From Escherichia phage KK4: a stretch of 64,000 nt of DNA. Shown one piece after another: positions 10,909-61,515 of this stretch. A model generated the notes under the pieces. That model was not told the DNA's origin, did no database searches, and saw only the letters and a program-made list of their open reading frames with translations. The stretch lies in the sequence record OR327750.1. The stretch is one strand, 5' to 3'. Made by a program: the position numbers and the translations under genes. Numbering within the stretch: position 1 is the stretch's first letter; each line of letters starts with the position of its first letter.

Positions 10909-11366
10909 TCAGCCTTATATTCAATAACAGGACATACTTTAGCTTTACGCGCTTTTAAAAATTCGACGATAATAGATTTCTTTGGTTGAATAGGAGGTAA
11001 ACCTTTATACGCCCTATCAATATTTTCTACATGTAAAGCATAATCCTTTTTCCATTTATAATCTTTATATTTTTCATGCAGTTGTGCAGGAATAACAAAT
11101 GAACCAATAATAAGTAAAACAAGCAAAATAGCAAGTATAAATGCTGATGGAATAAGAGTCCATAAACTACCAAAAATAAGCCATTTCTGCATAATTTCTG
11201 CGCAGATGATAGTTAGACCTGCGAGTATAGTACATCCGAAAAAAGAAACGAAAAATGTAGGAATAACAATAGACCAAAAATACGCGCACAGTGTCTTAGG
11301 TCGTTTCCATTCATCATTAAACATTTTGAATAATTTATAGTGCCAAGAGCTTTCATTAATAATCAT
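10905..11366 (-). CDS. predicted multi-pass membrane protein, 153 aa
   Basis: Three hydrophobic segments; overlaps downstream gene start by 4 nt. Confidence 0.55.
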   Translation of the reverse strand: MIINESSWHYKLFKMFNDEWKRPKTLCAYFWSIVIPTFFVSFFGCTILAGLTIICAEIMQKWLIFGSLWTLIPSAFILAILLVLLIIGSFVIPAQLHEKYKDYKWKKDYALHVENIDRAYKGLPPIQPKKSIIVEFLKARKAKVCPVIEYKAE

Positions 11367-11368
11367 AA

Positions 11369-11890
11369 CTATCCTTTCATTGAAGGTGTAACAGTTGTTA
11401 AATACTTAATCATAGCTTCAGCTTCTGATTTTGATAATGAAATTTCTCCATTGTTTTGACGAATAGAAATAAAATCCGGATGACGATCACCACCAGCCTT
11501 TAAAACACACATATAAGTATCAGTTTCATCTTCAATATTTGAAATGATTGAAGCAGTTCCACATGAATGTGGTTTTTGATAAATCAATGCAGCTTTTCTT
11601 CCACCGTTTGACTGTTCATAAACTTTTAACACATCAAACAAATCACTTCTTTTATCAATAGCTAAGATGTTGTTTTCATCTTCAATGTTAAATCCTTCGG
11701 ATACTTCATAAAGTGTCACCCATAAATCACCTATATCGATAGTAGCATTTCCTTTTCCACGACTTTCAAGAATATGACAAATTTTCTTGATTTCGTCATA
11801 ACTCATTTTAATAATATCATCTCCTTGAATAAGGAAGATGTCATTTTTAAATTCAACACGAATTAAACCGCTTTCACTTGAAATAAACAT
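11369..11890 (-). CDS. hypothetical protein, 173 aa (paralog of next gene upstream)
   Basis: C-terminus ISLSKSEAEAMIKYLTTVTPSM resembles VTFTKDEAIALKTYLDSVIPTM of neighbour. Confidence 0.55.
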   Translation of the reverse strand: MFISSESGLIRVEFKNDIFLIQGDDIIKMSYDEIKKICHILESRGKGNATIDIGDLWVTLYEVSEGFNIEDENNILAIDKRSDLFDVLKVYEQSNGGRKAALIYQKPHSCGTASIISNIEDETDTYMCVLKAGGDRHPDFISIRQNNGEISLSKSEAEAMIKYLTTVTPSMKG

Positions 11891-24234: not shown

Positions 24235-24242
24235 ATTTAAAA

Positions 24243-24806
24243 TTATTTACCTAGTTTACTTATTATAGCTTCTGCAGCAGCTTTTAGCTTAGATGCAGTG
24301 TTAATACGATTTTTAATTTCAGTATACGCATCGCCAAGAACATCAAGGCTATCAGAATAAACACTTACACTATTGCGTTCGCTATTTGAAATAGAACCTT
24401 TAGTTTTGCGGTCAAAATCGGTGTACACGTCTTGAAGATCGCGGGCTGCCTTCTTTGCATCATCCAATGCATCAAGAGCTTTATTCAAAGCATTAACGTA
24501 TTTTTTAGTGTCGAACATATTCTTAGAAATTTTAACAGGTGCGCGTTCAGGAGTAGCTAACACAGATTTAGGAACCTGAGCGCCAGATGCCAATTTCTTA
24601 GAAATTTTGAAAAATGCTTTATTGAATTTATTTTCTTGACTCATTGTAAAAGAACTATTATCGATGTTGTACATTTCAATAGCTTTAGCTTTCCACTTAA
24701 GAAAATCGCCGCGGTCTTTTGGGTCCAATTGGAAGAATACTTTAGTAAGATCTGCTTCAGATGGTAATTTTGCTGCTTCGGTTAAAAATTCGGCATAGGT
24801 TTTCAT
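24243..24806 (-). CDS. internal-protein-like head protein with capsid targeting sequence (IPIII-like), 187 aa
   Basis: N-terminus MKTYAEFLTE resembles T4 IP capsid targeting sequence MKTxxEF...E; Lys/Ala-rich; terminator downstream. Confidence 0.6.
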   Translation of the reverse strand: MKTYAEFLTEAAKLPSEADLTKVFFQLDPKDRGDFLKWKAKAIEMYNIDNSSFTMSQENKFNKAFFKISKKLASGAQVPKSVLATPERAPVKISKNMFDTKKYVNALNKALDALDDAKKAARDLQDVYTDFDRKTKGSISNSERNSVSVYSDSLDVLGDAYTEIKNRINTASKLKAAAEAIISKLGK

Positions 24807-24896
24807 TTAAAATCCTTGAAATAATTTATCGGTTGGTTATTAATTATTTATTACTTTGTTACTATCCGTAACAGCGTTATCCGAGTGATTCAAACT

Positions 24897-24923
24897 AAAA
24901 AGCCCCAACCTTTCGGTCGGGGC
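24897..24923 (-). terminator. rho-independent terminator after IPII-like gene
   Basis: Hairpin GCCCCGACC-gaaa-GGTTGGGGC then UUUUU; identical copy at 25454-25480. Confidence 0.7.
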
Positions 24924-24931
24924 TAAGAATG

Positions 24932-25405
24932 TCATTTGATTTGTTTAGCAGACCAAATGCGGTCTTTAATAATTTTTTGGATGTCTTCAACATACTCAAG
25001 AGAGTGAACATGTGGATTATCTTTGAAACTATAAGCACGGGCTAACTTTTGGCCTTCGGTTTTGATTACTAAAAGCTCTTTAAGGATAGCTTCATATTTA
25101 GCGATAATTCCTTTAACGATATTTTTTTCTTGTGCCGCTTTAGGATCTGCTTTAGGAGCAGGTTTACCCGAAGCCTTTGCAAAAGCAGCGCCAGTAGCAA
25201 CTAAACTTTTCCAGGCCATACTAACTGCATTTCCCGTAAATCCTTCCGCTTTCATGTCGCGTGCAAACTGGAATCGCGATTCATCAGAAGCATCTTTATA
25301 GGAATATTTACCCGCGGCAATGGCAGCTTTTGCAACAGCTTGAATTTCGGTGCTAGATGCTTCATTTAACACCGCTTCATTTAAAAATTGAGTATATGAT
25401 TTCAT
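24932..25405 (-). CDS. internal-protein-like head protein with capsid targeting sequence (IPII-like), 157 aa
   Basis: Starts MKSYTQFLNE; TATAAATA late promoter upstream; ORF-track N-terminal extension rejected because it reads through terminator and promoter. Confidence 0.55.
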   Translation of the reverse strand: MKSYTQFLNEAVLNEASSTEIQAVAKAAIAAGKYSYKDASDESRFQFARDMKAEGFTGNAVSMAWKSLVATGAAFAKASGKPAPKADPKAAQEKNIVKGIIAKYEAILKELLVIKTEGQKLARAYSFKDNPHVHSLEYVEDIQKIIKDRIWSAKQIK

Positions 25406-25443
25406 CTTATTTCCTGTTTTAATTTGTAGATTTAATATACTAA

Positions 25444-25451
25444 TATTTATA
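25444..25451 (-). promoter_or_regulatory. T4 late promoter motif TATAAATA upstream of IPII-like gene
   Basis: Exact octamer on minus strand ~39 nt upstream of ATG at 25405. Confidence 0.5.
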
Positions 25452-25788: not shown

Positions 25789-26139
25789 TTAATATTCTTT
25801 TAAAGAATCAATATATTCACGGCGTTTACGCCACAAATCAATTGCTTCATACGCGGATTCAGCATTTCGAATTAGCCGGCATTTATGTAAAGACTTATGA
25901 TTTTGATATTGTGTAGATAACGGAATTGTATCTAAAAGGTCTTTACGATCAAAATATTCGTAACCATCTAAACCAAATGAACGATTTTTGAGAAATTGCC
26001 AATGACCAAATTCGTTTTGAATATAAATATAATCCGCGTGTTGATAAAGTAAATTAATTTCACGAAATGAGATATGTTTTTCATATTCATTGAAGTAAAA
26101 TGTTAAATCATGAACTACTAAATAAACATTACCTTTCAT
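25789..26139 (-). CDS. hypothetical protein, 116 aa, embedded in the tRNA operon
   Basis: ATG after GAGGAAAA, 19 nt downstream of tRNA-Arg. Confidence 0.45.
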   Translation of the reverse strand: MKGNVYLVVHDLTFYFNEYEKHISFREINLLYQHADYIYIQNEFGHWQFLKNRSFGLDGYEYFDRKDLLDTIPLSTQYQNHKSLHKCRLIRNAESAYEAIDLWRKRREYIDSLKEY

Positions 26140-26157
26140 ATTTTCCTCACTTATAAT

Positions 26158-26233
26158 TGGTCGAGGCAGTAGGGATCGAACCTACGACCTAGGACTTAGA
26201 AGGTCCTTGCTCTTCCTTCTGAGCTATGCCCCG
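26158..26233 (-). tRNA. tRNA-Arg (anticodon UCU)
   Basis: Manual cloverleaf: 7-bp acceptor, T-loop TTCGATC, anticodon loop CTTCTAA, encoded CCA. Confidence 0.8.
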
Positions 26234-26237
26234 TAAT

Positions 26238-26313
26238 TGGGGTGACCGATGGGAGTCGAACCCATGACTACGAGAATCACAATCTCGAGTTCTACCAACT
26301 GAACTACGGCCAC
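26238..26313 (-). tRNA. tRNA-His (anticodon GUG)
   Basis: Manual cloverleaf: anticodon loop TTGTGAT, discriminator C73, encoded CCA; position -1 is not G. Confidence 0.7.
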
Positions 26314-26426
26314 ATTAATACCTACTCCAACAATCAAGATGTCTTCACACGAAATTAAGAGAAGAGTGATCAGTTCAACCCTATAATCGCGTCAAGTAGA
26401 TATTAATGTGACAGTTGTCACAAATT

Positions 26427-26501
26427 TGGCGGACGTGATAGGATTCGAACCTATAACCAATCGCTTAACAGGCGATCGCTCTGCCATTGAGCTACACATC
26501 C
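26427..26501 (-). tRNA. tRNA-Asn (anticodon GUU)
   Basis: Manual cloverleaf: anticodon loop CTGTTAA, T-loop TTCGAAT, encoded CCA. Confidence 0.75.
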
Positions 26502-26505
26502 AAAT

Positions 26506-26592
26506 TGGTGGGGAGTGATGGAGTCGAACCACCCGAGTCGCAATGACAATGGATTTACAGTCCACACCGCTACCTCTACGGGATAACTCCCC
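26506..26592 (-). tRNA. tRNA-Tyr (anticodon GUA), type II with long variable arm
   Basis: Manual cloverleaf: anticodon loop CTGTAAA, 87 nt, encoded CCA. Confidence 0.7.
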
Positions 26593-26605
26593 TTAATTCT
26601 TAATT

Positions 26606-26680
26606 TGGTGGCCCTGGGTGGAATTGAACCACCATCTGGCGATTATGAGTCGCTTGCTTGAACCTTCCAGCTACAGGGCC
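26606..26680 (-). tRNA. tRNA with CAU anticodon (Met, or Ile2-type AUA reader)
   Basis: Manual cloverleaf: anticodon loop CTCATAA, T-loop TTCAATT, encoded CCA. Confidence 0.7.
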
Positions 26681-26681
26681 T

Positions 26682-26757
26682 TGGTGCTGATTGACGGAAT
26701 CGAACCGCCGACCTTCTCATTACAAGTGAGTTGCTCTACCTACTAAGCTAAATCAGC
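26682..26757 (-). tRNA. tRNA-Thr (anticodon UGU)
   Basis: Manual cloverleaf: anticodon loop CTTGTAA, perfect 7-bp acceptor, encoded CCA. Confidence 0.8.
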
Positions 26758-26762
26758 AAAAC

Positions 26763-26852
26763 TGGCGGAGGCGATAGGATTTGAACCTATGAGTCGCCGG
26801 AGCGACTGCCGGTTTTCAAGACCGGTGCATTAAACCACTCTGCCACGCCTCC
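26763..26852 (-). tRNA. tRNA-Ser (anticodon UGA), type II
   Basis: Manual cloverleaf: anticodon loop CTTGAAA, long variable arm, encoded CCA. Confidence 0.8.
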
Positions 26853-26854
26853 AG

Positions 26855-26928
26855 TCTCCATACAAGGATTTGAACCTTGGACCTCCTGATCCCAAATCAG
26901 GCGCTCTACCAAACTGAGCTACACGGAG
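26855..26928 (-). tRNA. tRNA-Pro (anticodon UGG), CCA not encoded
   Basis: Manual cloverleaf: anticodon loop TTTGGGA; 3-prime end abuts tRNA-Ser by 2 nt (dimeric precursor arrangement as in T4). Confidence 0.8.
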
Positions 26929-26938
26929 TAAATTAAAT

Positions 26939-27012
<74 letters not shown>

Positions 27013-27017
27013 AAATT

Positions 27018-27104
27018 TGGTGCGAGAAGTGGGACTCGAACCCACAAGGAAATCATTCCGCAGCATTTTAAGTGCTGTGCCTTTACCAATTTGACCATTC
27101 TCGC
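27018..27104 (-). tRNA. tRNA-Leu (anticodon UAA), type II
   Basis: Manual cloverleaf: anticodon loop CTTAAAA, long variable arm, encoded CCA. Confidence 0.8.
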
Positions 27105-27105
27105 G

Positions 27106-27178
27106 CTGGGAATAAAGGACTCGAACCTTTGCATCCTGGAATCAAAATCCAGTGCCTTACCAACTTGGCTAATTCCCA
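27106..27178 (-). tRNA. tRNA-Gln (anticodon UUG), CCA not encoded
   Basis: Manual cloverleaf: anticodon loop TTTTGAT; abuts tRNA-Leu (Gln-Leu dimeric arrangement as in T4). Confidence 0.8.
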
Positions 27179-32013: not shown

Positions 32014-32604
32014 ATGCTCTTTACATTTTTTGATCCGATTGAATATGCGGCCAAAACGGTGAATAAAAACGCGCCGACTATTCCTATGACAGATATTTTT
32101 AGAAACTATAAAGACTATTTTAAACGCGCTCTTGCGGGATACCGCTTACGTACTTATTATATCAAAGGTTCACCACGCCCGGAAGAATTAGCAAATACTA
32201 TATATGGAAATCCACAGTTGTATTGGGTTTTATTGATGTGTAATGATAATTATGACCCGTATTATGGATGGATTACTTCACAAGAAGCTGCTTATCAAGC
32301 ATCTATACAAAAATACAAAAATGTGGGTGGAGACCAAATAGTATATCATGTGAATGAGAACGGTGAAAAATTTTATAATTTAATATCATATGATGATAAT
32401 CCATATGTTTGGTATGATAAAGGCGATAAAGCTAGAAAATATCCTCAATATGAAGGAGCACTTGCTGCGGTAGATACGTATGAAGCGGCTGTTCTTGAAA
32501 ATGAAAAACTTCGTCAAATAAAAATAATAGCAAAATCAGACATCAATTCATTTATGAACGACCTTATACGTATAATGGAGAAATCTTATGGAAATGATAA
32601 GTAA
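32014..32604 (+). CDS. 53: baseplate wedge protein gp53
   Basis: 196 aa; late promoter and Shine-Dalgarno upstream. Confidence 0.9.
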   Translation: MLFTFFDPIEYAAKTVNKNAPTIPMTDIFRNYKDYFKRALAGYRLRTYYIKGSPRPEELANTIYGNPQLYWVLLMCNDNYDPYYGWITSQEAAYQASIQKYKNVGGDQIVYHVNENGEKFYNLISYDDNPYVWYDKGDKARKYPQYEGALAAVDTYEAAVLENEKLRQIKIIAKSDINSFMNDLIRIMEKSYGNDK

Positions 32605-34318
32605 TAACCTTAATTGGTTTGTCGGTGTTGTTGAAGATAGAATGGACCCATTAAAATTAGGTCGTGTTCGCGTTCGTGTGGTTGGTCTGCATCCACCTCA
32701 AAGAGCACAAGGTGATGTAATGGGTATTCCAACTGAAAAATTACCATGGATGTCAGTTATTCAACCTATAACTTCTGCAGCAATGTCAGGAATTGGAGGT
32801 TCTGTTACTGGACCGGTAGAAGGAACTAGAGTTTATGGTCATTTTTTAGACAAATGGAAAACTAACGGAATTGTCCTTGGCACGTATGGCGGAATAGTTC
32901 GCGAAAAACCGAATAGACTTGAAGGATTTTCTGACCCAACTGGGCAATATCCTAGACGTCTAGGAAATGATACTAACGTATTAAACCAAGGCGGAGAAGT
33001 AGGATATGATTCCTCTTCTAACGTTATTCAAGATAGTAACTTAGACACCGCAATAAATCCCGATGATAGACCACTATCAGAGATTCCAACCGATGATAAT
33101 CCAAATATGTCAATGGCTGAAATGCTTCGCCGTGATGAAGGATTAAGATTAAAAGTTTATTGGGATACTGAAGGATATCCGACAATTGGCATTGGCCATC
33201 TTATCATGAAGCAGCCAGTTCGTGATATGACTCAAATTAATAAAGTTTTATCAAAACAAGTTGGTCGTGAAATTACCGGAAATCCAGGTTCTATTACAAT
33301 GGAAGAAGCGGTAACTTTATTTGAACGTGATTTAGCTGATATGCAACGCGACATTAAATCGCATTCTAAAGTTGGCCCAGTTTGGCAGGCAGTTAATCGT
33401 TCTCGTCAAATGGCATTAGAAAATATGGCATTTCAGATGGGTGTTGGCGGTGTAGCTAAATTTAACACAATGTTAACTGCTATGTTAGCCGGAGATTGGG
33501 AAAAAGCATATAAAGCTGGTCGTGATTCATTGTGGTATCAACAAACAAAAGGCCGTGCATCCCGTGTTACCATGATTATTCTTACAGGGAATTTGGAATC
33601 ATACGGTATTGAAGTGAAAACACCGGCTAGGTCTTTGTCAGCAATGGCTGCTACTGTGGCAAAGTCTTCTGATCCAGCTGACCCTCCTATTCCGAATGAT
33701 TCGAGAATTTTATTTAAAGAACCTGTTTCTTCATATAAAGGTGAATATCCGTATGTTCACACAATGGAAACTGAAAGCGGTCATATTCAGGAATTTGACG
33801 ATACCCCGGGACAAGAACGATACAGATTAGTTCATCCGACTGGAACATATGAGGAAGTATCACCGTCAGGAAGAAGAACAAGAAAAACTGTTGATAATTT
33901 GTATGATATAACAAATGCTGATGGTAATTTTTTGGTAGCTGGCGATAAAAAGACTAACGTCGGTGGGTCAGAAATTTATTACAACATGGATAATCGTCTC
34001 CACCAAATAGATGGAAGCAATACAATATTTGTACGTGGCGATGAAACTAAGACAGTTGAAGGTAATGGAACTATCCTAGTCAAAGGTAATGTTACTATTG
34101 TAGTTGAAGGTAATGCTGACATTACAGTTAAAGGAGATGCTACCACTTTAGTTGAAGGAAATCAAACTAACACAGTAAATGGAAATCTTTCTTGGAAAGT
34201 TGCTGGGACAGTTGATTGGGACGTTGGTGGTGATTGGACAGAAAAAATGGCATCTATGAGTTCTATTTCATCTGGTCAATACACAATTGATGGTAGCCGT
34301 ATAGACGTAGGTTTATAA
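32588..34318 (+). CDS. 5: baseplate hub subunit and tail lysozyme gp5
   Basis: 576 aa; OB-fold N-terminus, internal lysozyme domain MAEMLRRDEGLRLKVYWDTEGYPTIGIGHL, C-terminal VxGxxxxx beta-helix repeats. Confidence 0.95.
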   Translation: MEMISNNLNWFVGVVEDRMDPLKLGRVRVRVVGLHPPQRAQGDVMGIPTEKLPWMSVIQPITSAAMSGIGGSVTGPVEGTRVYGHFLDKWKTNGIVLGTYGGIVREKPNRLEGFSDPTGQYPRRLGNDTNVLNQGGEVGYDSSSNVIQDSNLDTAINPDDRPLSEIPTDDNPNMSMAEMLRRDEGLRLKVYWDTEGYPTIGIGHLIMKQPVRDMTQINKVLSKQVGREITGNPGSITMEEAVTLFERDLADMQRDIKSHSKVGPVWQAVNRSRQMALENMAFQMGVGGVAKFNTMLTAMLAGDWEKAYKAGRDSLWYQQTKGRASRVTMIILTGNLESYGIEVKTPARSLSAMAATVAKSSDPADPPIPNDSRILFKEPVSSYKGEYPYVHTMETESGHIQEFDDTPGQERYRLVHPTGTYEEVSPSGRRTRKTVDNLYDITNADGNFLVAGDKKTNVGGSEIYYNMDNRLHQIDGSNTIFVRGDETKTVEGNGTILVKGNVTIVVEGNADITVKGDATTLVEGNQTNTVNGNLSWKVAGTVDWDVGGDWTEKMASMSSISSGQYTIDGSRIDVGL

Positions 34319-34336
34319 ATAATTCAGAGGTGAATT

Positions 34337-35203
34337 ATGAAAAAATCTAACACAGTTCAATTTAGATACATATATAAAACAACCGTTACTAATCCGAAAG
34401 GATTAGTACGTGTTTATATTGGTAAACATGAATCTAGATATTTTGATTTAGAAAATGACAAGTATATAGGTTCCGGTGATTATATTAAAAAGATACGCAA
34501 TAAACCTGGTTATAAAATAGATTTTGAAATAATTGAATTTGTTTCTACTTATGAAATTCTTAATTTAAGAGAAAGGTATTGGATTTCGAAATATAAATCA
34601 TCTGACATTCTATGTACCAATATAAAATCCGGCGGTGATGGTTTTTCATCCGAAGATTTGAAGAGAATGTGGTCTAATCCTGAATATAGGAAAGCTCAAT
34701 TGAAGGCATTAGCTAAATCAACGTCAACTAAAGAATTTTCAGAGAAAATATCTAAAATAAACAAAGAAAGATGCGCATCACCAGAATATCGAAAGAAAAT
34801 GAGTAATGCGATGAAAACTGCTTTTGAAAATGATCCAACATTAAAAATTCGTATTTCTAATACTGTTAAATCTTTATGGAAATCCGATGAATACAGAAAC
34901 AAATTAATCAATCATCCAGGAAAAATAGAAGGAACTAAACAATCATGGAATGATCCTTTGATAAGAAAATCGAGATTAGATGCTAGAAATAAAAAACTAA
35001 GATCAGTTGAACCTTGGATTAGTATAGAAAAAGTCAAAAAACTTTGGGAGGATTTGGGAAAACCACATCCGCAGAAATACAAATGGTTTAGAGAAAAAGC
35101 AATTGAACGTGATCTCCCGGATGTAAGTTATAACGCAATTTTAAAAGCGTTGAAAAAATGTGATTATAAATTTACATCATTAGAGAATTCAACAATTGGC
35201 TAA
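34337..35203 (+). CDS. GIY-YIG family homing endonuclease (Seg-like), 288 aa
   Basis: N-terminal FRYIYKTTV...VYIGK...RERYWISKY GIY-YIG module; repeated W.NPEYR-type motifs; between gene 5 and gene 6. Confidence 0.75.
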   Translation: MKKSNTVQFRYIYKTTVTNPKGLVRVYIGKHESRYFDLENDKYIGSGDYIKKIRNKPGYKIDFEIIEFVSTYEILNLRERYWISKYKSSDILCTNIKSGGDGFSSEDLKRMWSNPEYRKAQLKALAKSTSTKEFSEKISKINKERCASPEYRKKMSNAMKTAFENDPTLKIRISNTVKSLWKSDEYRNKLINHPGKIEGTKQSWNDPLIRKSRLDARNKKLRSVEPWISIEKVKKLWEDLGKPHPQKYKWFREKAIERDLPDVSYNAILKALKKCDYKFTSLENSTIG

Positions 35204-35213
35204 TATACTTCCA

Positions 35214-35732
35214 ATGAGCGCTGATTTAGGAGAATCCATGGAAGGTTCTTCTATCGACGTCACCTTTACCGCTCAATTAGAAACAGGTGAAACGTTAGTA
35301 TCTATAAATATAACTAGTTACGAAGAAACTCCTGGGGTTTTAGTAGAAGAAAATCGCTTATATGGAACATATGAATCTGTGTTTGGATTTGGAAATGACG
35401 CGTTGAAATATCGTTTAGGCGATGAATTTAAAACTGCTGCTTCATGGGAAGAACTTCCTACTGATTCTGATACTCAGTTGTATTTGTGGAAAGCTCCTCA
35501 AAATCTCCAGAAGACATTCACTTACGAAGTAACATTAATATATGACTACCAAGAACAAAGTGAATCTGGAGGTTCTGGCAGTAATTCTAGATCATCTTCT
35601 GATACTACTGAACCGACAGATCCTCCTGCTCCAGTAAGAAAAACTCTAGTTAAAAATTACACAAAAACTATAGTTGGAAATTGGAGTCGTTGGGCTAATA
35701 AATTAAGAAGCTATGTGTATGAGAGGCAATAA
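35214..35732 (+). CDS. hypothetical protein (gene 5.1 position), ~172 aa from first ATG
   Basis: ORF-track start is TTG; acidic Ser/Gly-rich C-terminal half. Confidence 0.5.
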
Positions 35733-36026
35733 ATGTCAGGATTGAGTTATGATAAGTGTGTTACTGCTGGCCATGAAGCGTGGCCTCCAACAGTTGTGAA
35801 TGCTACGCAAAGTAAAGTATTCACTGGAGGAATTGCTGTTCTAGTAGCAGGCGATCCAATTACAGAACATACAGAAATTAAAAAGCCATATGAAACACAT
35901 GGCGGAGTGACACAACCTAGAACTTCTAAGGTATATGTCACTGGAAAGAAAGCTGTTCAAATGGCTGATCCAATATCATGTGGTGATACTGTGGCTCAGG
36001 CATCATCTAAAGTATTCATTAAATAG
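35733..36026 (+). CDS. 5.4: PAAR-repeat spike-tip protein gp5.4
   Basis: 97 aa; position directly upstream of gene 6. Confidence 0.75.
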
Positions 36027-36034
36027 GATTTAAA

Positions 36035-38017
36035 ATGGCAAATACCCCTGTAAATTATCAATTAACAAGAACAGCAAATGCTATTCCCGAGATATTCGTC
36101 GGGGGTACGTTTGCTGAAATAAAACAAAACCTCATTGAATGGCTTAATGGCCAAAATGAATTTTTGGATTATGATTTTGAAGGCTCAAGATTAAACGTTC
36201 TGTGTGACCTTTTGGCTTATAATACGCTGTACATTCAGCAGTTTGGTAATGCTGCTGTATATGAAAGCTTTATGCGTACTGCTAACTTACGAAGCTCAGT
36301 TGTTCAAGCTGCACAAGATAACGGATATTTACCTACTTCAAAATCCGCTGCGCAAACCGAAATTATGTTAACATGCACCGACGCATTGAATAGGAATTAC
36401 ATTACAATTCCTCGCGGAACTCGCTTTTTAGCATATGCAAAAGATACTTCTGTTAATCCATATAACTTCGTTTCTACCGAAGACGTTATTGCTATTCGTG
36501 ATAAAAATAACCAATATTTTCCACGTTTAAAATTGGCCCAGGGACGTATAGTAAGAACTGAAATCATTTATGATAAATTAACACCTATTATCATTTATGA
36601 TAAAAATATTGATAGAAACCAGGTTAAATTATATGTTGATGGAGCGGAATGGATTAACTGGACGAGAAAGTCAATGGTTCATGCTGGTTCAACATCAACG
36701 ATTTACTATATGCGTGAAACTATTGATGGAAACACTGAATTCTATTTTGGTGAAGGTGAAATTTCTGTTAATGCTTCTGAAGGAGCTTTGACTGCCAATT
36801 ATATCGGAGGTCTTAAACCTACTCAGAACTCTACGATTGTTATTGAGTACATCAGTACTAATGGTGCTGACGCGAACGGAGCAGTAGGATTTTCATACGC
36901 AGATACATTAACAAATATAACTGTCATCAATATTAATGAAAATCCAAACGGTGACCCAGATTTTGTTGGGGCAGATGGAGGCGGTGATCCAGAAGATATT
37001 GAGCGTATTCGCGAATTGGGTACTATTAAACGCGAAACACAGCAACGATGCGTAACTGCGACTGATTATGATACATTCGTTTCAGAGAGATTCGGTTCTA
37101 TTATTCAGGCAGTTCAGACTTTCACTGATTCTACTAAACCTGGGTATGCATTTATTGCTGCTAAACCTAAATCAGGTCTGTATTTAACTACCGTACAGCG
37201 TGAAGATATTAAAAATTATCTCAAAGACTATAATTTAGCTCCTATTACGCCATCAATTATTTCTCCTAATTATCTTTTTATTAAGACTAATTTAAAAGTC
37301 ACATATGCTTTAAATAAACTGCAAGAATCCGAACAGTGGCTTGAAGGTCAAATAATTGATAAAATTGATCGCTATTATACCGAAGATGTAGAAATTTTTA
37401 ACTCATCTTTCGCTAAATCTAAGATGTTAACTTATGTAGATGATGCAGATCATTCTGTCATCGGTTCATCAGCGACTATTCAAATGGTTCGTGAAGTACA
37501 AAACTTCTATAAAACACCTGAAGCAGGTATTAAATACAATAATCAAATAAAAGATCGTTCTATGGAATCTAATACGTTTTCATTTAATTCTGGACGAAAG
37601 GTTGTAAATCCTGATACTGGTTTAGAAGAAGATGTATTATATGACGTTCGTATAGTATCAACAGACCGAGATTCTAAAGGAATTGGTAAAGTTATTATTG
37701 GTCCATTTGCTTCTGGCGATGTTACAGAAAATGAAAACATTCAGCCGTATACAGGCAACGATTTTAACAAATTAGCAAATTCTGATGGACGCGACAAATA
37801 CTATGTTATCGGTGAAATAAATTATCCGGCTGACATGATTTATTGGAATATCGCTAAAATTAATTTAACATCTGAAAAATTTGAGGTTCAGACTATTGAA
37901 TTATATTCTGACCCAACCGATGATGTTATCTTTACCCGTGATGGTTCACTGATTGTATTTGAAAATGATTTACGTCCGCAATACTTAACTATCGATTTGG
38001 AGCCTATATCACAATGA
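36035..38017 (+). CDS. 6: baseplate wedge protein gp6
   Basis: 660 aa; position and size as T4. Confidence 0.9.
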   Translation: MANTPVNYQLTRTANAIPEIFVGGTFAEIKQNLIEWLNGQNEFLDYDFEGSRLNVLCDLLAYNTLYIQQFGNAAVYESFMRTANLRSSVVQAAQDNGYLPTSKSAAQTEIMLTCTDALNRNYITIPRGTRFLAYAKDTSVNPYNFVSTEDVIAIRDKNNQYFPRLKLAQGRIVRTEIIYDKLTPIIIYDKNIDRNQVKLYVDGAEWINWTRKSMVHAGSTSTIYYMRETIDGNTEFYFGEGEISVNASEGALTANYIGGLKPTQNSTIVIEYISTNGADANGAVGFSYADTLTNITVININENPNGDPDFVGADGGGDPEDIERIRELGTIKRETQQRCVTATDYDTFVSERFGSIIQAVQTFTDSTKPGYAFIAAKPKSGLYLTTVQREDIKNYLKDYNLAPITPSIISPNYLFIKTNLKVTYALNKLQESEQWLEGQIIDKIDRYYTEDVEIFNSSFAKSKMLTYVDDADHSVIGSSATIQMVREVQNFYKTPEAGIKYNNQIKDRSMESNTFSFNSGRKVVNPDTGLEEDVLYDVRIVSTDRDSKGIGKVIIGPFASGDVTENENIQPYTGNDFNKLANSDGRDKYYVIGEINYPADMIYWNIAKINLTSEKFEVQTIELYSDPTDDVIFTRDGSLIVFENDLRPQYLTIDLEPISQ

Positions 38018-45503: not shown

Positions 45504-47050
45504 GTAACAATACATATCAGCACGTATCAAATGAATCAAAATATGTTAAATTCGATCCAGTAGGATCGAATTTTCCTGACACTGTCACGACAGTGCAGTC
45601 TGCATTATCAAAAATAAGTAATATCGGCGTAAATGGTATTCCTGATGCAACTATGGAAGTTAAAGGAATAGCAATGATCGCGTCAGAGCAAGAGGTTTTA
45701 GATGGAACAAATAATTCTAAAATCGTTACACCAGCTACATTAGCAACAAGATTATTGTATCCAAACGCTACTGAAACTAAATATGGTTTAACGCGTTATT
45801 CAACAAATGAAGAAACATTACAAGGCTCAGATAATAATTCATCAATAACGCCGCAAAAACTGAAATACCACACTGACGATGTGTTCCAAAATAGATATTC
45901 GTCTGAGTCATCAAACGGGGTTATTAAAATATCATCTACACCTGCAGCTTTAGCTGGAGTTGATGATACTACGGCAATGACTCCATTAAAAACACAAAAA
46001 CTTGCAATAAAATTAATTTCACAAATAGCTCCTTCCGAAGATACTGCATCAGAATCTGTGAGAGGTGTAGTTCAATTATCTACTGTTGCGCAAACTCGTC
46101 AAGGAACTCTCCGCGAAGGATATGCAATTTCTCCGTATACCTTTATGAATTCTGTTGCAACACAAGAATATAAGGGTGTTATACGTTTAGGAACACAATC
46201 GGAAATTAACAGTAATTTAGGAGATGTTGCAGTAACAGGTGAAACACTAAATGGTCGAGGAGCTACTGGTTCTATGCGCGGAGTAGTTAAATTAACGACG
46301 CAAGCCGGTATTGCCCCTGAAGGTGATAGTTCTGGAGCATTAGCATGGAACGCAGATGTAATTAATACTCGTGGTGGACAAACTATTAATGGTTCTTTAA
46401 ATTTAGACCATCTTACAGCAAACGGAATTTGGTCGCGCGGCGGAATGTGGAAAAATGGCGATCAACCTGTTGCCACTGAAAGATACGCGTCCGAAAGAAT
46501 TCCAGTTGGGACTATTATGATGTTTGCAGGTGATTCAGCACCTCCTGGTTGGCTTATGTGCCATGGTGGAACCGTGTCAGGTGACCAATTTCCTGATTAT
46601 AGAAACGTAGTTGGAGGAAGATTTGGTGGGGATTGGAATAATCCAGGGATTCCTGATATGCGAGGTCTTTTCGTCAGAGGAGCCGGCACAGGCGGTCATA
46701 TTTTAAATCAACGTGGACAAGATGGCTATGGAAAGGATAGACTGGGCGTAGGATGTGACGGAATGCATGTTGGTGGTGTTCAGACACAACAAATGTCATA
46801 CCATAAACACGCTGGTGGTTGGGGAGAATACCAAAGACATGAAGCTCCATTTGGCGCGTCCGTTTATCAAGGATATCTTGGAACTAGAAAATATTCCGAC
46901 TGGGATAATGCTTCATACTTCACTAATGATGGATTTGAATTAGGTGGACCGAGAGATGCTCTCGGTACACTTAATCGTGAAGGATTAATTGGTTATGAAA
47001 CTAGACCATGGAATATATCATTAAACTATATTATTAAAGTTCATTACTAA
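45500..47050 (+). CDS. 12: short tail fiber protein gp12
   Basis: 516 aa; Gly-rich C-terminal receptor-binding region. Confidence 0.9.
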
Positions 47051-61432: not shown

Positions 61433-61447
61433 TCTTTGACGATTTAA

Positions 61448-61476
61448 GGGACCTTCGGGTCCCTTTAGTTGTTTTT
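61448..61476 (+). terminator. rho-independent terminator after gene 23
   Basis: Hairpin GGGACC-ttcg-GGTCCC then U-rich tract. Confidence 0.7.
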
Positions 61477-61480
61477 ATGG

Positions 61481-61488
61481 TATAAATA
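61481..61488 (+). promoter_or_regulatory. late promoter of gene 24
   Basis: TATAAATA between gene 23 terminator and gene 24. Confidence 0.6.
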
Positions 61489-61515
61489 AATCATATAAAC
61501 CAAAAGGAAAGCGCA

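Follow-up and report, generated by a model that had tools for sequence, protein, structure and literature searches.

A putative SegF-like homing endonuclease gene of the GIY-YIG type, free-standing between genes 5 and 5.1 of a T4-like phage

T-even phages are a model system for intron-less homing. The T4 representatives include SegF, encoded between genes 56 and soc by a promoter-less gene with an internal terminator hairpin, and I-TevI, a GIY-YIG nuclease borne by the td intron that can double as a repressor (PMC2988022). A late promoter combined with a hairpin over the ribosome-binding site has been described for I-TevI, I-TevII, I-TevIII, segB, and mobE (PMC2988022). Here, we analyzed a 64,000-nucleotide stretch of Escherichia phage KK4 (OR327750.1; hereafter, the window) and focused on a 288-residue open reading frame (ORF) on its plus strand (34337-35203; GenBank WIL00164.1), located between genes 5 and 5.1. 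Our comparisons indicate that this ORF is a real and intact gene, kept by selection, for a SegF-like homing endonuclease of the GIY-YIG type, whose cleavage activity and target we infer. It is a free-standing gene carried by a 901-nt cassette that probably homes at the gene 5/5.1 junction. Elements of this kind are well known, and this one is already loosely annotated in some records. Its insertion site is undescribed in the literature searched, in which neither a name for the ORF nor an experiment on it turned up.

The ORF starts with ATG, preceded 6 nt upstream by a GAGG Shine-Dalgarno sequence, and encodes 288 residues, as stated in the initial annotation. That annotation set it between genes 5 and 6, which needs correction: the order on the plus strand is gene 53, gene 5 (32588-34318), the ORF, 5.1 (35196-35732), 5.4/PAAR (35733-36026), and gene 6 (36035-38017), so that 5.1 and 5.4 separate the ORF from gene 6. 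A 2-kb query around the ORF matched Escherichia phage GADU22 (OQ944321.1, Tequatrovirus) at 100% and T6 and ~30 other phages at 97 to 98%. The product is a "hypothetical protein" in the GADU22 record (WIL00164.1), a "seg-like hypothetical protein" in that of T6 (T6ncORF142), and a "Seg-like homing endonuclease, GIY-YIG family" in that of Shigella phage vB_SsoM_113. Since the reading frame is intact across ~30 phage genomes and the ratio of nonsynonymous to synonymous substitution rates (dN/dS) between the GADU22 copy and that of phage F2 is 0.10, it is more than a chance ORF. The corresponding values for the neighbors are 0.11 (gene 5), 0.20 (5.1), and 0.03 (5.4). The ORF and its T6 copy differ at 14 synonymous and 3 nonsynonymous positions.

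Comparison of all 15 T4 Seg, Mob, and I-Tev proteins with the window by tblastn yielded SegF as the best T4 match to the ORF (32% identity over 167 residues; E 4e-8), followed by SegA (26%, full length; E 1e-7), SegB (26% over 192 residues; E 3e-7), and MobD (29% over 136 residues of the repeat region; E 5e-5). Among these relatives, SegF alone shares with the ORF the extra residues in the GIY-to-YIG loop (TPKGV in SegF and NPKGL in the ORF) and the GKHES...DKY.GSG pattern. Both proteins also end in a W..LW..LGKP...P..SY domain, which SegA and MobD have too, and a strong hairpin lies ~50 nt into both reading frames, that of segF being the known terminator (PMC2988022). Unlike segF, the ORF has a late-promoter-like box of its own, its internal hairpin lacks a good U-tract, and its product is 64 residues longer, with more repeat units. 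Because it occupies another site (5/5.1 versus 56/soc) and is 32% identical, the ORF is a paralogue of SegF and not its orthologue. SegB and MobD share the W-x-x-P-E-Y-R motif with the ORF, yet SegA, SegB, and MobD all reside at other loci, and the nuclease domain of MobD is of the HNH type rather than GIY-YIG. I-TevI matches in nuclease fold and motifs, in its modular arrangement of an N-terminal nuclease and C-terminal DNA-binding modules, and, going by the predicted expression signals of the ORF, in its late promoter directly upstream with a hairpin over the ribosome-binding site (PMC2988022). In contrast to I-TevI, the ORF is not intron borne and its product has no zinc finger.

T4 segC is likewise a Seg-type GIY-YIG gene of the gene 5-6 interval, and both genes would target the baseplate hub gene cluster. 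However, segC lies between 5.1 and 5.3/5.4. The possibility that the ORF is a displaced segC or a SegC orthologue was rejected, considering the different site, the lack of a significant SegC match in the tblastn comparison, and the presence of both genes in phage T4_ev151. In the window, segC is absent and 5.1 abuts 5.4. As a separate observation, T4_ev151 and four other phages carry both the ORF's gene and a segC-like gene, and T4 segC (140 residues) plus gene 5.3 (56 residues) correspond, bar a 1-nt deletion in T4, to a single 196-residue SegC ORF in T4_ev151 (piece L004, 3421-4011, versus T4 80196-80791 in L007). T4 gp5.3 thus has the appearance of a C-terminal DNA-binding domain split off from SegC.

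The predicted nuclease domain spans residues 1 to 105 (34337-34651, plus strand) and displays Y11-I-Y13, Y27-I-G29, H31, Y43-x-GSG47, E79, and N95. The strings on which the initial annotation relied are all found there (F9-RYIYK, V26-YIGK, and R78-ERYWISKY). Using the nuclease domains of T4 SegA-G, I-TevI, and I-TevII alone and leaving out the query family, we built a hidden Markov model (HMM) and ran it against all 523 six-frame ORFs of the window. It matched residues 9 to 106 of the ORF (HMM positions 4 to 96 of 101) with E=1.1e-11, the runner-up reaching 0.44. PHROG 314, "homing endonuclease," also matches (E=6.9e-26). An alignment of the ORF with 13 homologues provided a 14-member family profile that recognizes the I-TevI catalytic domain (1LN0; E=1.8e-6, residues 5 to 93 of 97). 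Y11, Y13, Y27, G29, E79, and N95 are invariant in this family, and its invariant residues align with Y6, Y17, E75, and N90 of I-TevI (E79 with E75 and N95 with N90). The GIY-to-YIG spacing of the ORF exceeds that of most members by 4 residues, as in SegF.

TIGR01453 scored the ORF at 17.2 bits (cutoff, 56), and phmmer with the single ORF sequence found nothing in PDB. An AlphaFold2 model computed from the alignment had an overall predicted local distance difference test (pLDDT) score of 68, with block means of ~65 to 86 for N-terminal residues 11 to 90. The GIY-YIG alpha/beta fold was recognizable in this model, with T4 EndoII, UvrC, Eco29kI, and SLX1 within the top 30 structural matches. A Foldseek search of PDB with the full-length model returned no match below E = 0.9, and therefore, the predicted structure is supportive of a GIY-YIG assignment, not strong evidence for it. 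A model of the N-terminal domain made without an alignment (pLDDT 49) was discarded as unusable.

The insertion itself can be delimited to the base by aligning carriers (GADU22 and T6) with empty alleles (Shfl2 and T4). The whole cassette (34294-35194, plus strand) comprises 901 nt that replace 13 nt, ATCGAGGATTGAC, of the T2/T4-type allele, and it is the only stretch in its region without a blastn match to T4. The comparison of this interval with insertless relatives that the initial annotation had recommended thus reveals a clean cassette. The ORF stands free between conserved genes, co-oriented with them and outside any intron or intein. Together with the match to the SegA-G/I-Tev profile, this clean presence/absence pattern backs the earlier reading of a free-standing Seg-type GIY-YIG homing endonuclease.

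The empty allele reads ...CAATTGATGG ATCGAGGATTGAC ATTGGCTAATATACTTCC..., with gene 5 ending in I-D-G-S-R-I-D-I-G-stop and the TTG start of 5.1 placed inside ATTGGCTAA. In carriers, the cassette brings a recoded gene 5 3' end, consisting of the last eight codons and the stop (34292-34318, plus strand), with GGT AGC CGT ATA GAC GTA GGT TTA TAA in place of GGA TCG AGG ATT GAC ATT GGC TAA. This changes 10 of 21 nt, including a TCG-to-AGC serine switch, and alters the protein only by an I-to-V substitution and an extra Leu. The original gene 5 end, ATTGGCTAA (last two codons plus stop; 35195-35203, plus strand), now closes the endonuclease ORF. The ORF runs out through the original ATT GGC TAA and therefore takes over the old gene 5 stop together with the 8 nt by which gene 5 overlapped 5.1, whose TTG start lies at 35196. 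A third lineage, Logan contig L012 (78% amino acid identity), has AATGGCTAA as the overlap and an ATG start for 5.1.

Flanks were compared in five carriers, one scar allele, and four empty alleles; a second scar, LF73P1, was unanchored and contributed essentially no columns. In these 10 alleles, the 69 nt preceding and the 88 nt following the junction do not vary, and the recoded block is the sole fixed difference between carriers and empty alleles within ~900 nt on each side. In two Gelderlandvirus-like sequences, L018 and L019, gene 5 ends in ...VDIGL-stop and TATAAATA, with a 29-nt spacer before 5.1 and no endonuclease gene (~2150-2240). Their gene 5 end, ...CGTGTGGACATTGGTTTATAAATATT, agrees with the left junction of the L012 carrier at each of 26 nt. 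Because a gene 5 end of this type exists in phages that lack the gene, the recoded block is most simply explained as the flank of a divergent donor lineage that travels with the cassette. Recoding as a purpose-evolved immunity change was set aside in favor of this simpler origin. Whatever its source, the block eliminates the empty-site sequence from carriers.

The distribution of the element was charted in 509 related phage records. The T6-type gene occurs in 29 of them and an F2-type gene (85% amino acid and 77% nucleotide identity) in another 3, adding up to ~32 carriers, whereas ~460 records, including those of T2, T4, RB51, and Shfl2, have the empty site. A scar allele was found in 4 records. 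In ESh36, 215Ecol030PP, and LF73P3, the scar results from an 851-nt deletion between two copies of TTATAAAT, situated at 34313-34320 and 35164-35171 of the plus strand, and keeps the recoded gene 5 end along with the last 34 nt of the ORF (ESh36, piece L005, 1990-2047). The LF73P1 scar (L014, 1501-1671) has the same deletion endpoints and an F2-type left junction, which suggests that the gene has been lost at least twice. No insert was present at this site in the 17 intact loci sampled from other Tevenvirinae genera (L026 and L036 were uninformative), and a protein search of IMG/VR retrieved one locus only, in phage ZN18. The diversity sample thus consists of GenBank phages plus one Logan contig (L012).

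Sliding-window identity between GADU22 and F2 is ~70% in gene 5, 5.1, and the 5' half of the ORF, rises to 92 to 97% over 34750-35215, i.e., the DNA-binding half, and returns to ~71% at the right junction, exactly where the cassette ends. In L012, the relation is reversed, the 5' half being the one closer to GADU22. Given these contrasting profiles, the two halves of the ORF have different histories, with the 3' half having moved between lineages independently of the flanks.

These findings can be accommodated in a homing cycle. Late in infection, a small amount of endonuclease would be made. Upon mixed infection with an empty T2/T4-type relative, its C-terminal modules would attach to the gene 5/5.1 junction, which is highly conserved, and cutting by the nuclease domain would follow at or near this site. 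Recombinational repair off the endonuclease-carrying genome would then copy the cassette into the empty allele. The carrier site would be immune because the insert splits it and 10 of its 21 nt are recoded. Once spread stops, the gene could be lost by deletion between the two TTATAAAT copies, leaving a resistant scar.

Several points weigh against this scenario. Cleavage, the target site, and preferential inheritance are each deduced from sequence comparison. For cleavage of the insertless allele, the one sequence-level hint is the recoded and split junction, and for preferential inheritance, the exchange of the 3' half between lineages is indirect evidence. Characterized Seg enzymes often cut hundreds of base pairs from their insertion site, and the target could therefore lie elsewhere. 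A search for single-nucleotide polymorphisms tracking the gene, as a co-conversion tract, across ~900 nt on each side found none beyond the 25-nt block, and carriers make up only ~6% of the relatives. The Pfam families PF01541 and PF19835 do not match the ORF even at E≤10. The initial annotation had proposed a Pfam GIY-YIG/NUMOD search and regarded the absence of a GIY-YIG profile hit as decisive. Taken literally, that absence holds for Pfam and the ORF itself; more sensitive profiles do match, and its homologues are recognized by PF19835 (9 of the 14 family members) and PF01541 (5 of 14). Because the leave-out HMM, the family profile, the homologue matches, and PHROG 314 all agree, the Pfam miss is a sensitivity failure and no refutation. 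Finally, His31 occupies, within a shortened segment, the position of the catalytic Arg27 of I-TevI, where no Arg is conserved and the helix bearing that residue is six residues shorter in the ORF. T4 SegA-F show the same G-x-H pattern, and several of these enzymes are recorded as active (PMC2988022); we therefore take the His-for-Arg replacement as a likely trait of the Seg subfamily rather than a sign of inactivity.

Homing at the gene 5/5.1 junction must also be weighed against other functions. The ORF might encode an active site-specific nuclease whose main role or target is a different one, such as the cutting of competitor genomes elsewhere (marker exclusion) or trans-acting recombination or amplification in the manner recently reported for SegB. 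Free-standing Seg enzymes can indeed cut far from their own gene, with SegB acting on loci tens of kilobases away (PMC13096335), purifying selection as strong as that on the neighboring essential gene would fit a benefit to the phage, and the missing co-conversion tract is compatible with a remote target. Nonetheless, we consider this explanation unlikely, since immunity of a local target would predict just the one fixed difference seen between carriers and empty alleles, the recoded and split junction, and both the cassette boundaries and the scars fit a homing cycle.

A catalytically dead or domesticated relic, i.e., a DNA-binding protein such as a repressor or a noncutting passenger, seems improbable to us. 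I-TevI provides a precedent for repression (PMC2988022), and besides the missing Arg and the failure of curated GIY-YIG profiles, the nuclease half is far more diverged between lineages than the DNA-binding half. Against this stand the invariance across the family of the GIY, YIG, Glu79, and Asn95 positions, a low level of nonsynonymous divergence (pN) in the N-terminal domain despite saturated synonymous sites, and the His-for-Arg replacement shared with T4 Seg enzymes listed as active (PMC2988022). It is very improbable that the ORF is an ancestral resident of the gene 5-6 module lost by most lineages rather than a mobile insert: scar alleles show that loss occurs and the divergent F2 lineage has the gene at the same site, yet in ~460 empty alleles genes 5 and 5.1 overlap seamlessly and nothing of the ORF is left, the other Tevenvirinae genera sampled have no insert there, and the 3' half of the gene is 92 to 97% identical between lineages whose flanks are ~70% identical. 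Homing at the gene 5/5.1 junction by a SegF-like endonuclease is thus the interpretation we favor.

The DNA contacts that such homing demands would be provided by the C-terminal portion. A helical repeat region extends over residues 106 to 224 (34652-35008, plus strand). The four W/C-x-(N/S)-P-E-Y-R-like repeats reported in the initial annotation do occur, as W/C-x-x-P-E-Y-R motifs, at residues 112 (WSNPEYR), 146 (CASPEYR), 181 (WKSDEYR), and 204 (WNDPLIR). Weaker units intervene between them, e.g., TSTKEFSEKI at residue 129, which suggests a repeat length of ~17 residues. SegB and MobD contain the same motif, and two distantly related proteins, P0015 and P0017, carry it in many tandem copies. 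Pfam NUMOD3 (PF07460) does not match the ORF; it matches 4 of its 14 aligned relatives, and the matched units align with the repeats of the ORF. Hence, these resemble NUMOD3 by alignment, in an ORF with no NUMOD3 profile match of its own, and their contact with DNA is presumed. GerD and GBP_repeat matches of Pfam on the helical repeats were below threshold and treated as spurious. More widely, the ~17-residue W-x-D-P-E-Y-R unit is a widespread tandem repeat in GIY-YIG endonuclease-like proteins (P0014, P0015, and P0017) captured by no Pfam family, with only subthreshold, probably spurious GerD matches. The repeats are followed by a predicted three-helix domain (residues 225 to 288; 35009-35203, plus strand; W..i..lW..lGKP ... 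lP..sY..il) common to SegF, SegA, and MobD, for which DNA binding of the helix-turn-helix type is presumed.

At E≤1e-3, a full-library search with the ORF uncovered 2,056 related cluster representatives, of which no more than two reached E≤1e-30, namely, the ORF's own cluster and P0014, a 233-residue protein of the same architecture with 45% identity. The ORF is therefore a fairly isolated branch of a very large family.

Candidate expression signals are recognizable around the start codon. The T4 late-promoter consensus, TATAAATA (34314-34321, plus strand), shares bases with the gene 5 stop codon and stops 15 nt short of the ATG. This box is conserved in F2 and L012 and annotated as a "predicted late promoter" in the record of phage fPS-2. 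Since the window holds 22 such boxes against 10 expected, a single match is weak support for a late promoter. A scan for sigma-70 promoters detected no enrichment (5 found versus 8 expected). A candidate hairpin, AUAAUUCA-GAGG-UGAAUUAU (34319-34338, plus strand; z = -3.3 in a 51-nt context), has the Shine-Dalgarno sequence as its loop and the AU of the start codon in its stem, with its 5' arm overlapping the promoter box. It is only partly conserved in T6, F2, and L012. A transcript initiated at the TATAAATA promoter would lack the 5' arm, in keeping with the arrangement known from I-TevI, I-TevII, I-TevIII, segB, and mobE (PMC2988022). Any function of the hairpin is putative.

The second hairpin lies within the coding region, ~50 nt into the ORF and at the same position as the internal terminator of segF (PMC2988022). 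It is formed by TACTAATCC-GAAA-GGATTAGTA (34387-34408, plus strand), with 9 bp and a GAAA loop over the codons (V)-T-N-P-K-G-L-V. The F2 counterpart, AACCAACCC-AAAG-GGGTTGGTT (L009, ~2061-2082), specifies the same amino acids as the window copy and has three stem pairs changed on both sides, all at third codon positions. The hairpin is ACCAACCC-GAAA-GGGTTGGT in L012 (~124-143), and at homologous codons, segF forms GGACGCC-GAAA-GGCGTC-TTTT in T4 (L006, minus strand, ~nt 47-63 of the ORF) and AAAACGCC-GAAA-GGCGTTTT-TT in VR7. A Klebsiella phage gene (28% identity) has a 10-bp hairpin at the same distance from the start, encoding different amino acids. The hairpin is conserved across the SegF-like clade, including the L096 and L097 genes, via compensatory synonymous changes. 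Because native codons outfold 98 to 100% of 1,000 synonymous recodings in six genes (21, 12, 11, 6, 3, and 0 recodings fold as well), the structure itself is under selection.

We tentatively propose, as a possibility that still falls short of being the expected outcome, that this hairpin is a conserved cis-regulatory RNA of the SegF-like clade, acting as an attenuator, a terminator, or a site of processing to hold down the amount of endonuclease. Its palindrome is translated into the extra residues of the GIY-to-YIG loop, so that, if the proposal holds, a protein insertion would owe its form to an RNA structure. Together with the replacement gene 5 end and the reused stop and 5.1 start, the hairpin would then be part of a compact design for harmless insertion inside the end of an essential gene.

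Classical phage T6 has the gene, whereas T2 and T4 do not. Its locus would display all stages of a homing cycle side by side in sequenced phages, namely, alleles that are empty, alleles that are occupied, a scar that would be resistant, and a mosaic that crosses lineages. With the cassette, the gene 5-6 baseplate module has two independent insertion sites, this one and that of segC. In practical terms, the cassette explains a recurrent 0.9-kb indel among therapeutic T4-like phages, and the endonuclease assignment corrects the "hypothetical protein" annotations.

Elsewhere in the window, tblastn with the 15 T4 proteins and GIY-YIG and Mob-type HNH profiles against the 523 six-frame ORFs matched this ORF alone, in line with its earlier description as the only homing endonuclease gene here. 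Pfam scanning of the ORFs in four of the six other non-T4 stretches, all but 2219-2600 and 46363-46737, detected no nuclease domains. Compared with T4, the window lacks the nrdD intron with I-TevII, mobD, segB, segC, and segD. The absence of segB from the tRNA cluster and of segD from the interval between genes 23 and 24, both noted initially, was borne out: no ORF lies between the 11 tRNAs, and only ~60 nt are found at the place of T4 segD (61443-61504). The tRNA cluster (26158-27178) comprises Arg, His, Asn, Tyr, Met/CAT, Thr, Ser, Pro, Gly, Leu, and Gln tRNAs, compared with 8 tRNAs in T4, and the one with a CAT anticodon may correspond to tRNA-Ile of T4. Two stretches near this region have no T4 counterpart. 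The mobD position is taken by two unrelated ORFs, coding for a predicted membrane protein and a y05I-like protein. Differences from T4 were located at 1-560, 10910-11871, 24235-25448, 25790-26660, and 61443-61504.

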